In this document: positions 56,098-58,121 of the stretch, piece after piece | Layout of the letters: every line of letters begins with the position of its first letter | How positions within the stretch are numbered: the stretch's first letter is position 1 | NCBI GenBank assembly: GCA_000004985.1 | Contig: GG738868.1 | Origin: Naegleria gruberi | Lineage: Eukaryota | Reading direction: 5' to 3' (one strand) | Length of the DNA: 64,000 nt | Program-made: the position numbers and the translations under genes | Notes under the pieces: generated by a model | Database searches by the model: none | What the model was told of the DNA's origin: nothing | What the model saw: the letters and a program-made list of their open reading frames with translations, nothing else

Positions 56098-58121
56098 TTA
56101 TTGTACTAAACACTTCTTTGAATGAGATTTACCATAATTTTCATCTCTACTGATTGCAATTGCTTTCAATATAATTTCACTCAAATCATCAAAACCATAT
56201 CTTTTTTTTGAGCTAGTTTCAATATAAGTTATACAACCTATCTTTTTAGCCATCAACTCTCCTTCTTCAAATGTGATTGGATTTGTATCATATTTGAGAA
56301 GAAAAATTGGATCAGTGCGATAGTCAACCTTATTATTCACCAATATAATAGGTGTATCAGGACAGTGATGTCTAATTTCTGGAATCCATTTGAGTGCAAC
56401 ATTGAAAAATGAATTTTCTGCTACGCAACTAAAGCTCAGTAAGAATAGAGATGTATCTGGATAATTCTATTAATCAATTAGTCAACTGATAAGATAGGTT
56501 ATTACTTACCAATGGACGTAAACTATTGATATTGAAAAATATTGAAATATATAAAACAACCTACCAATCATAATCTAAAATCGATGAGTAGAAATAAGTA
56601 TTTTCATAACTACTTACCTTCAGGACCAGCAGTATCCCTTTCAAATGTCAATTATTCATATTGACTCAATAAAACTTACCATAGACCAATTAAATAACTC
56701 TTTCCCTCAACTCTGACACTCAAATCATAATTATCAAATATTGTTGGAATGAACTCTTCTGGATAGCTACCTGTAGCATATGTAATATATAATGATGTTT
56801 TACCAACTGATCCATCACCAACCTGAATTATCTTTTCACTTGCAGGAGGTGAATATTTTTCTAACATTTCATTCATTTGAGAGTATTGTAAAATTTCAGA
56901 TGATTTTGAATAATGTTTACCATCTAAACGTTGTGTTGCTTTTCTAATTGTCCGTATTCTTTTAGAATTCTTCTGTTCAACTTTTGACAATATGGATTGA
57001 ATTGTTTCAATTAGAATTTGTCTAAAATTTGATGTTTTAAGTAAATTTAATTCAAATAGATTTGCTTGAGAGAAATATTTTGATGCAATTTTAAATTCCT
57101 TCATCTTTTTTAAATAAAAATCTTTCCAAAATTGATCTTCACTTGTTAATTCACAAATTCTTAATGATTTGGAAACTAAATGTAATTTCATTAAATCTTG
57201 AATATTAAGAAATAATAGAATTGATCTTAAAATATCATCATTCAGATTCTTGAATAGTTCAATATTAAATGAAAATGTCAAAATGTCACAAGTCATTTGA
57301 AATCCTCCAAATATAAAATAATTAAATGAAGAATCAATGGGAATTTGAACTAAAGTGTGGAGACATGGTCTAGCTACTTCCTTATCATTGAAAATATTCG
57401 AAAGTGAATGATTTTTTTCAATTTTCCAACCTTCACTAATATTTTCCAAATCAAGACATGTACAATCTGTGAAATCTTGATTTAGATTACAACCACCAAT
57501 ACTATATAACTTATTTCCTTCCAAAACCATTGAATGTCCATATCTAGCAAAATTATCATTCAAAATAATCTCAGCTTGACATTTGACATTTCCAACATTT
57601 TCCAATGAATCAAGTGAAATCTTAATTGTATCCTTAATAATTGAATCATAATTTCTACCACCATGTATATACCACTCTCCTGTTTCATTATTTAACACGG
57701 ATGCATGATAATATCGATGTGAAATTACTTCTTGACTTGAATCAATTTCCACTCTTGTCCATTCCATATTTGTAAAATTAAATTTAAATAATTCATTTGA
57801 TGCAAAATAATTTTTACAATTATATCCACCAAATATAAATAATTGATTTTTAAAAATTACACTTGAATGACCATATAAAGGTGGAATTAATCTATCTTTG
57901 GAATTTAATTGTTTCCATGAATTATTTGTAAATTCATATATCCAAATATCATTATGAAAACTATTAATAGATTTACCTCCAAATAAAATCATTTCATTTG
58001 AATTTCTTAAATTGGTAGTATGACAATTTCTTGCACATGGAATTAATTTTTCTATTGAATGATTCGGATCAGTTAATATTGTTAAATTTCTCCATTTTTT
58101 AGTTGTAATATCAAATTTCAA
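56098..58121 (-). CDS. Kelch-repeat / F-box-like / Rho-family small GTPase fusion (exons 56680..58121, 56618..56637, 56565..56574, 56510..56522, 56098..56466)
   Basis: Continuous ORF with >=5 Kelch blades (LFGG/IFGG/IHGG/SIGG/IFGG plus W positions), then an F-box-like DDILRSILLFLNIQDLMKLHLVSKSLRI. It continues without a stop into the Rho G1-G3 region KIIQVGDGSVGKTSLYITY...FIPTIFDNY...LWDTAGPE. Four introns (42, 43, 42, 43 nt; GTAAGT/GTAGGT donors) and two micro-exons (10 and 13 nt) close phase to give ...[22 protein letters not shown]...NNKVD...TSSKK...KKCLVQ(stop). Q61 is replaced by P, the conserved switch-II Arg by Cys, and CLVQ is a CAAX box. Confidence 0.65.

Follow-up and report, generated by a model that had tools for sequence, protein, structure and literature searches.

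A Naegleria gruberi gene joining a Kelch propeller, a divergent F-box and a Rac-like GTPase domain with proline at position 61

We analysed a 64,000-nucleotide stretch of Naegleria gruberi DNA (contig GG738868.1 of assembly GCA_000004985.1; hereafter the window), which carries on its minus strand a gene for a protein that combines a Kelch propeller, an F-box and a Rac-like GTP-binding (G) domain. The gene (58258..56098) is that of N. gruberi XP_002677266.1, a Kelch-F-box-Rac protein, and consists of five coding segments with two frameshifts near its 5′ end; we regard its identity and architecture as virtually certain. Six open reading frames (ORFs) of the window are exact matches to RefSeq proteins of N. 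gruberi NEG-M, all from a single scaffold of 427,589 bp, with accessions that flank XP_002677266 on both sides, which disposes of the fungal origin implied by the initial annotation, made from the bases alone. With a GC content of 31.6% and short GT..AG introns, the window has the character of an AT-rich eukaryotic chromosome. The bulk of the gene is an ORF of 481 codons (56676..58121, minus strand), whose chance of staying open is ~7e-21 given the local base composition. The initial annotation had read it as Kelch, F-box and Rho in one continuous frame, and this holds: the ORF is real, and Pfam recovers matches to Kelch (PF24681, 9.5e-50), F-box (PF00646, 21.2 bits, just above the gathering cut-off of 20.5) and Ras (1.8e-38).

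A protein search returned full-length Kelch-F-box-Rho proteins from N. fowleri (two copies), N. lovaniensis, Willaertia magna and N. gruberi itself (XP_002676274.1, annotated as “rho family small GTPase”), together with two metagenomic fragments, one of them on a contig designated L001. Further members, from Acrasis kona, Pelomyxa schiedti and Balamuthia mandrillaris (where the protein is annotated “RhoG-like”), emerged from a profile search covering 1.84 billion representative proteins, together with a transcript of Stenamoeba stenopodia, several metagenomic proteins and shorter F-box-linker-Rho proteins without Kelch repeats. Judged from these sequences, the Kelch-F-box-Rho layout is conserved across Heterolobosea and present in Amoebozoa. 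The L001 gene is 64% identical to the window gene. We considered it as an orthologue from another species and rejected this, as a near-identical N. gruberi gene exists, the Rho part of which is XP_002677955.1. An L001-like protein is also listed as another N. gruberi Rac in Table S8 of Herman et al. 2021 (BMC Biol 19:142, PMC8296547), and L001 is therefore a paralogue rather than an orthologue. The locus is one of several paralogous Kelch-F-box-Rac genes of Naegleria.

The ORF stops after ...LIGLW because a GTAAGT intron begins there. Once four GT..AG introns (42, 43, 42 and 43 nucleotides, nt) are removed, the coding sequence continues through three micro-exons (20, 10 and 13 nt) and a last exon of 369 nt to give a product of 617 residues, counted from the first codon of the ORF, that ends in KSHSKKCLVQ with a TAA stop at 56100-56098. 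On the minus strand, intron 1 (56638..56679; GTAAGT..AG; at the same position in L001) is followed by the 20-nt exon (56618..56637), which encodes (W)DTAGPE and is identical in L001 at all 20 nt. Intron 2 (56575..56617) leads to the 10-nt exon (56565..56574), which encodes DYD and the first two bases of the Cys66 codon; this codon is divided by intron 3 (56523..56564; GTAGGT..AG) as TG|T, where L001 has AG|A (Arg). The 13-nt exon (56510..56522) supplies the third base of Cys66 and then LRPL, and intron 4 (56467..56509) precedes the last exon (56098..56466), which holds the remainder of the G domain (NKVD, a shortened Rho insert and TSSK), a polybasic stretch, CLVQ (56112-56101) and the stop codon. 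Switch II is encoded by three consecutive micro-exons with introns of 42-43 nt between them, both in the window (56510-56637, minus strand) and in L001 (2067-2194). The shared positions support the splice model, and the junctions predicted in the initial annotation prove to be right. In the N. lovaniensis homologue, the switch II region, with CCA as the proline codon, lies inside one ordinary exon without micro-exons, so the micro-exons are specific to the N. gruberi paralogues. They have also misled gene prediction, in that RefSeq models of the paralogue mis-splice these exons of 10-20 nt: XP_002677955.1 (203 residues) comprises only the Rho part, begins at an internal methionine and omits the 10-nt micro-exon (DTAGPEGKLRPL).

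Blades 2-6 of the Kelch propeller lie in the main frame (57291..58121, minus strand), where PF24981 (1.9e-30) is matched besides PF24681. Six blades are recognisable, the first of them in another frame in the window copy (see below). By sequence, the best solved match of the propeller is the Kelch domain of LZTR1 (2.5e-24), followed by KLHDC10, KLHDC3 and KLHDC2. The fold was examined in an AlphaFold2 model of the N. lovaniensis homologue, computed from a 40-sequence alignment, which has a mean predicted local distance difference test (pLDDT) score of 87, with the propeller above 90 and the F-box, linker and G domain all near 90. A model from a 7-sequence alignment (pLDDT 59.6, F-box and linker below 50) was unusable. 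In a Foldseek search of the PDB with the N. lovaniensis model, the first five matches are LZTR1 Kelch domains with MRAS, KRAS or RIT1-GDP (E about 3e-20, template modelling (TM) score 0.75); Rac1 comes next (TM 0.92, 53% identity), and then FBXO42 and KLHDC2.

The F-box (KNLNDDILRSILLFLNIQDLMKLHLVSKSLRICELTSEDQFWKDFYL; 57111..57251, minus strand) is divergent, with LN in place of LP and a 2-residue insertion. Its match to PF00646 is marginal (2.7e-4), that to the F-box-like family PF12937 (20.9 bits) falls under the cut-off of 24.3, and only 3 of 7 heterolobosean members match a Pfam F-box at E ≤ 0.01. The conserved Leu-Pro at which helix 1 begins, missing from the window gene, is LN or FN/VN in most of the Naegleria and Willaertia relatives and is kept in Balamuthia, Pelomyxa and several metagenomic members. 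When a profile of the heterolobosean F-boxes was compared with the PDB, seven of the eight matches were F-box proteins aligned at their F-box, led by FBXO3 (1.2e-3) and followed by β-TrCP1/2, FBXL2 and FBXL5. The amoebozoan and metagenomic members carry canonical LPxE F-boxes at the homologous position (Pfam F-box-like, 2e-16 to 5e-7). Because of these PDB matches and the canonical amoebozoan F-boxes, we consider the assignment, which is made by sequence, sound for the family, the Naegleria form being divergent. A conserved helical linker (56835..57110, minus strand), which contains the internal methionine of MLEKYSPP, connects the F-box to the G domain. The initial annotation had suggested structure prediction for this region; in the N. 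lovaniensis model the linker is predicted with confidence (pLDDT about 90) to form three helices, a β-hairpin and a long helix, while the stretch between propeller and F-box is disordered.

The first part of the G domain (56680..56834, minus strand) extends from the G1 motif (GDGSVGKT, 56819-56796) through Thr35 of switch I to ...IGLW. Rac1 is the best solved match of the domain (4e-55), and the nucleotide-binding motifs G1-G5 are intact (GDGSVGKT, IPT, DTAG, NKVD and TSS(K)). The Rho insert between G4 and G5 is retained; it is three residues shorter than in Rac1 and has its full length in N. fowleri and N. lovaniensis. The catalytic Gln61 is replaced by proline (codon CCT, 56624-56622). At the C-terminus, the CAAX box CLVQ follows KSHSKK and occupies, with the stop codon, 56112-56098; such CaaQ tails are nearly universal among the Kelch-F-box-Rho proteins. 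Key codons and motifs were checked by coordinate, and the features listed in the initial annotation (GDGSVGKT, NKVD, TSSK, Q61P, R66C and the CLVQ box) are all present, the Q61 codon reading CCT in the reference.

Among the Kelch-containing members with a readable switch II, position 61 is proline in 11, glycine in 3 and glutamine in 3, an alignment tally that omits the window gene and L001, both incomplete there; as both have proline, the proline total becomes 13. The Kelch-less paralogues mostly have Gln61. Sequence comparison indicates that Pro61 is a conserved family trait and not a private mutation, and the fusion and Pro61 are kept together in members from Naegleria, Willaertia, Acrasis and Balamuthia, a point on which the initial annotation had asked for orthologues to be compared. 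Of the two substitutions named in that annotation, Q61P is shared by most Kelch-containing members, R66C alone being confined to this copy. In HRAS, the Q61P substitution makes GTP hydrolysis about 8-fold slower, as in other Q61 mutants, and is wild-type-like in transformation assays (PMC6813200). From its sequence, the window G domain probably hydrolyses GTP slowly or not at all; that it is permanently active is unlikely. The prediction of a GTPase-deficient, constitutively GTP-bound protein like Rnd or RhoH is thus likely to hold for slow hydrolysis and overreaches, in view of HRAS Q61P, for a locked active state.

The DTAGPE motif also occurs in the fused Rho domains of unrelated lineages. 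It is found in a Rho-BTB-Kelch-BTB protein of Arcella intermedia (P0006), in a Rho-Kelch-F-box transcript (P0009), in P0336 and in P0012 (Ceratobasidium), the architectures concerned being Rho-BTB-Kelch-BTB, Rho-Kelch-F-box, Rho-BTB and kinase-Rho.

The 5′ end of the gene lies upstream of 58121, where the initial annotation had placed it. The TTG at that position is no start codon and is a product of listing ORFs under the bacterial code; homology goes on across two other frames to an ATG (58256..58258, minus strand), the only plausible start, which is preceded by a run of eight A, is out of frame with the remaining gene and is equivalent in position to the beginning of the L001 gene. Kelch blade 1 lies in a second frame (58117..58254, minus strand) as 46 stop-free codons (…LPLTSCNIRIGSS…KLYLFGG…NDLIE; p = 0.012 for random openness) that align with MSLLSTLPLRIGHS…IYLFGG…NDLIEI of the paralogue. 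In a tblastn comparison, residues 4-51 of the paralogue match frame -2 and residues 49-580 match frame -3, so that the first blade can be read only by way of two +1 frameshifts. They fall at about 58252-58242 and 58119-58109, both within 140 nt of the ATG (58109-58258, minus strand) and each in an ATTTGA context. Dropping one T each from TTATTTGAATC (58252-58242) and GAAATTTGATA (58119-58109) restores MTLLNLLNLPLTSCNIRIGSS...KLYLFGG...NDLIEIDITTKKW, and the repaired frame gives a complete first Kelch blade and a protein of 662 residues. A 34-nt GT..AG intron (58217-58184) was considered as a repair of the first frameshift and rejected: it would delete the stretch that corresponds, by comparison with L001 at both the DNA and the protein level, to the conserved RxGHS strand of blade 1, and the verified introns measure 42-61 nt. 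A scan of metagenome DNA for further copies of the 5′ end, made with an 18-mer from blade 1, gave four chance matches and no homology.

The gene and its type of fusion have already been catalogued in the 2021 Naegleria genome paper (PMC8296547), and the novelty of the locus is low. The Ras superfamily of Naegleria is analysed there in Additional files 4 and 10. The N. gruberi sheet of Table S8 gives XP_002677266.1* as a Rac, the asterisk denoting a manually corrected model, with Kelch, BTB and F-box as additional domains and a sequence that begins LKFDITTKKWRNLTILTDPNHSIEKLIPCARNCH; in this entry, the columns for putative pseudogenes and for relatives outside Heterolobosea are empty. The curated model opens with leucine, without a methionine, as does our spliced product, and the two are identical over the first 400 residues, which is the part of the entry covered by the comparison. 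Although the table gives a BTB domain, Pfam finds none in the spliced product at E ≤ 1. The claim in the initial annotation that such an architecture had not been described is contradicted by this entry and by annotated homologues in N. fowleri, N. lovaniensis, Willaertia, Acrasis, Balamuthia and Pelomyxa. In the main texts searched, a combination of Kelch, F-box and Rho in Naegleria or Amoebozoa was not found, its description being confined to the supplements of PMC8296547. Apparent additions to the published table are the conservation of Pro61, the amoebozoan members with canonical F-boxes and the LZTR1-like propeller, along with the frameshifted 5′ end and Cys66 of the window copy; none of these was found in the passages of PMC8296547 examined or in literature searches. 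The micro-exon structure and the RefSeq mis-annotation that results from it appear to be a further addition, the same passages containing no statement on micro-exons. The practical value of the comparison is that a curated but unpublicised gene model is confirmed.

Taken as a whole, the locus is best explained as a Kelch-F-box-Rac gene that encodes a farnesylated receptor of an SCF (Skp1-Cul1-F-box) ubiquitin ligase with a slow GTPase, a reading to which we assign a probability of roughly 0.5. The protein would be attached to the membrane and act as a substrate receptor, its Kelch propeller selecting the substrate and its F-box docking Skp1; for this receptor role, predicted from sequence, the odds appear about even. 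The G domain would bind GTP and hydrolyse it slowly, probably without responding to GTPase-activating proteins. With hydrolysis of this kind, its role would be to localise or regulate the ligase, not to act as a Rac switch of the conventional kind. In the supplement of PMC8296547, the F-box-GTPase fusions of Naegleria, Kelch combinations included, are said to point to “GTPase-dependent ubiquitination”.

Several points weigh against a slow-GTPase SCF receptor. The heterolobosean F-box lacks the proline of the LP motif, contains a 2-residue insertion and barely exceeds the Pfam cut-off. The N. lovaniensis model has a predicted TM score of 0.53 and no confident placement of the propeller relative to the F-box-Rho module. 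As HRAS Q61P is non-activating (PMC6813200), the sequence does not tell in which signalling state the G domain is. Arg66 and Ser71 of switch II are altered in the window copy only (R66C and S71N), and in the reference assembly translation from the ATG yields blade 1 only if two frameshifts are allowed. Finally, the members of the family are known from sequence and prediction alone.

With its first Kelch blade out of frame and Arg66 changed to Cys, the window copy may be N-terminally impaired. An alternative to the SCF receptor reading is that the family is functional and that the paralogue XP_002677266.1 was disabled recently or truncated at its N-terminus, having lost its first Kelch blade through frameshifts, and is drifting at positions 66 and 71. 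We consider this possible, though unlikely. Two +1 frameshifts at most 140 nt from the ATG are what such a copy might show, and the assembly is not generally riddled with indels, since the 2.7-kb gene for a Vps34-type kinase in the same window aligns with its homologues in one frame across 920 residues. The published curated model likewise begins at leucine without a methionine. Cys66, which requires two base changes, and Asn71 are unique to the window copy within the family, and birth-and-death evolution is remarked in PMC8296547 for the F-box-Rab-like clades of Naegleria. However, 617 downstream codons remain open (~7e-21 being the chance for the first 481 by themselves), the GT..AG borders of all four introns are preserved, and the out-of-frame blade-1 segment is itself still free of stops (p = 0.012). 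A relative-rate test revealed no acceleration of the window copy compared to the paralogue (50 vs 37 unique changes, p = 0.16), and the entry in Table S8 carries no putative-pseudogene flag. Both indels could, moreover, be local errors of the reference.

According to a second alternative, the F-box-like bundle of the Naegleria proteins no longer recruits Skp1, and the protein is a Rac-family scaffold without ubiquitin-ligase activity that binds partners through its Kelch and helical regions. The substitution of LN for LP, the 2-residue insertion and the absence of the Trp of the usual xRW motif are in line with this, as are Pfam scores at or below threshold in most heterolobosean members (3/7 match at E ≤ 0.01). 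On the other hand, the F-box segment is the best conserved part of the protein outside the G domain, with 73% identity between the paralogues and invariant L, D, K, L, D and W positions; the family profile still retrieves true F-boxes from the PDB, and amoebozoan homologues have canonical F-boxes at the same place. We regard loss of Skp1 binding as improbable. The weakest alternative, in which an independent small Rac is made from the internal methionine (MLEKYSPP...) and the Kelch/F-box part is separate or untranslated, is very improbable: the 203-residue RefSeq model of the paralogue does start at the homologous methionine (MLDKYPP), but this model skips the 10-nt micro-exon and is therefore a prediction artefact, the frame is unbroken from F-box through the conserved linker to G1 in every homologue, the linker is confidently structured in the N. 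lovaniensis prediction, assembled transcripts unite Kelch, F-box and Rho (Stenamoeba P0185, and P0009 in another domain order), and Herman et al. merged the parts in their corrected model (PMC8296547).

A wider proposal is that Kelch-F-box-Rho proteins form an old class of SCF ligases, common to Heterolobosea and Amoebozoa, that are tethered to membranes and carry a nucleotide switch of their own, and whose propeller recognises a small GTPase; we hold this to be improbable. LZTR1 is a CUL3 adaptor whose Kelch propeller binds the GDP-loaded RAS proteins RIT1, MRAS and KRAS (PMC8154269, PMC8185703), so it is conceivable that the window propeller, too, recognises a small GTPase, perhaps the G domain of the same protein. 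The LZTR1-like propeller would then recognise either its own Pro61 Rac domain in cis or a Rho/Ras protein in trans, and the nucleotide state would gate assembly of the ligase or its self-destruction. The recurrence of Pro61 among Rho domains joined to F-box or BTB adaptors (Naegleria, Willaertia, Acrasis, Balamuthia, the Arcella Rho-BTB-Kelch-BTB protein and a Rho-Kelch-F-box transcript) would suit a G domain under selection as a non-hydrolysing regulator better than one in decay. If the proposed SCF receptor mechanism holds, amoeboid protists would join Rho-type switches directly to SCF ubiquitin ligases, providing a Cul1 counterpart of RhoBTB-Cul3, and the natural fusion would hint that LZTR1-like propellers and small GTPases are functionally linked.

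Other features of the window are the following. The Vps34-type phosphatidylinositol 3-kinase gene (6618-9651, minus strand) has a 61-nt intron near 9344-9404. Its best matches are from N. lovaniensis and Willaertia (81% identity), with no N. gruberi protein among the matches listed, and the N. gruberi protein set may lack it or contain a poor model of it. A Dbl-homology RhoGEF ORF (12918-14213, plus strand; Pfam 1.1e-34) and UniProt D2VFQ3 (10596-11546, plus strand), named F-box domain-containing, are located on the scaffold of the Kelch-F-box-Rac gene, some 40-45 kb away from it. The products of the immediate neighbours of this gene, at 54909-56003 (plus strand; LPPEPLGVICSFI...) and 53979-54626 (minus strand; CYEIMKYLETQDL...), have N-termini that are F-box-like by eye, and one of the two has a ConA/LamG-like domain (6e-17). 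These two ORFs were considered as further F-box genes, which Pfam does not support (best F-box-like E = 0.19). Upstream, the ORF at 58406-61762 (minus strand) encodes a PH-domain membrane protein of 1118 residues with an odd stretch, GGWWRWRWCWWRW, at about 60090-60150; the same bases read VVGGGGGGVGGGG in the +1 frame, which may reflect a frame problem at this site or a true repeat rich in Trp and Arg. The GC content drops to 17% in the 2-kb bin 58001-60000, compared to 27-36% elsewhere in the window; this bin takes in the intergenic region as well as the part of the upstream ORF that encodes its Ile/Phe/Asn-rich membrane portion.

Among known systems, the RhoBTB proteins (RhoBTB1-3 and RacA of Dictyostelium) likewise place an atypical Rho-family G domain and a substrate-adaptor module of a cullin-RING ligase on one chain, and RhoBTB3 also has a CAAX box. 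The G domain of RhoBTB is thought to regulate assembly of the Cul3 ligase through an intramolecular contact (PMC4931677). The parallel with RhoBTB-Cul3 drawn in the initial annotation is reasonable, and the supplement of PMC8296547 makes the same inference for Naegleria F-box-GTPase fusions. The domain order differs, however: RhoBTB has an N-terminal G domain followed by tandem BTB domains (Cul3), whereas the window gene encodes a Kelch propeller, an F-box (Cul1/Skp1) and a C-terminal G domain, with no BTB domain in its product at Pfam E ≤ 1. The G domains of RhoBTB also deviate from the Rho consensus in several respects (PMC4931677), whereas that of the window gene is near Rac1 (4e-55), its most notable deviation being Q61P.

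LZTR1 (Kelch-BTB-BTB) is the best match of the propeller by sequence and, for the N. lovaniensis model, by fold, although its margin over other Kelch propellers (KLHDC2, KLHDC10 and FBXO42) is modest. Unlike LZTR1, the window product has neither BTB nor BACK domains, and GTPase binding by its propeller is a speculation by analogy. The Kelch-type F-box proteins (FBXO42 and the plant FBK proteins) share with it an F-box and a Kelch propeller as the presumed substrate-binding module; these proteins have the F-box ahead of the propeller and lack a GTPase, in contrast to the order Kelch, F-box, Rac of the window product. Rnd1-3 and RhoH resemble it in the replacement of catalytic residue 61, but they are small stand-alone proteins, whereas the window G domain is part of a fusion and keeps Gly12 (GDGSVGKT), deviating at position 61 only.

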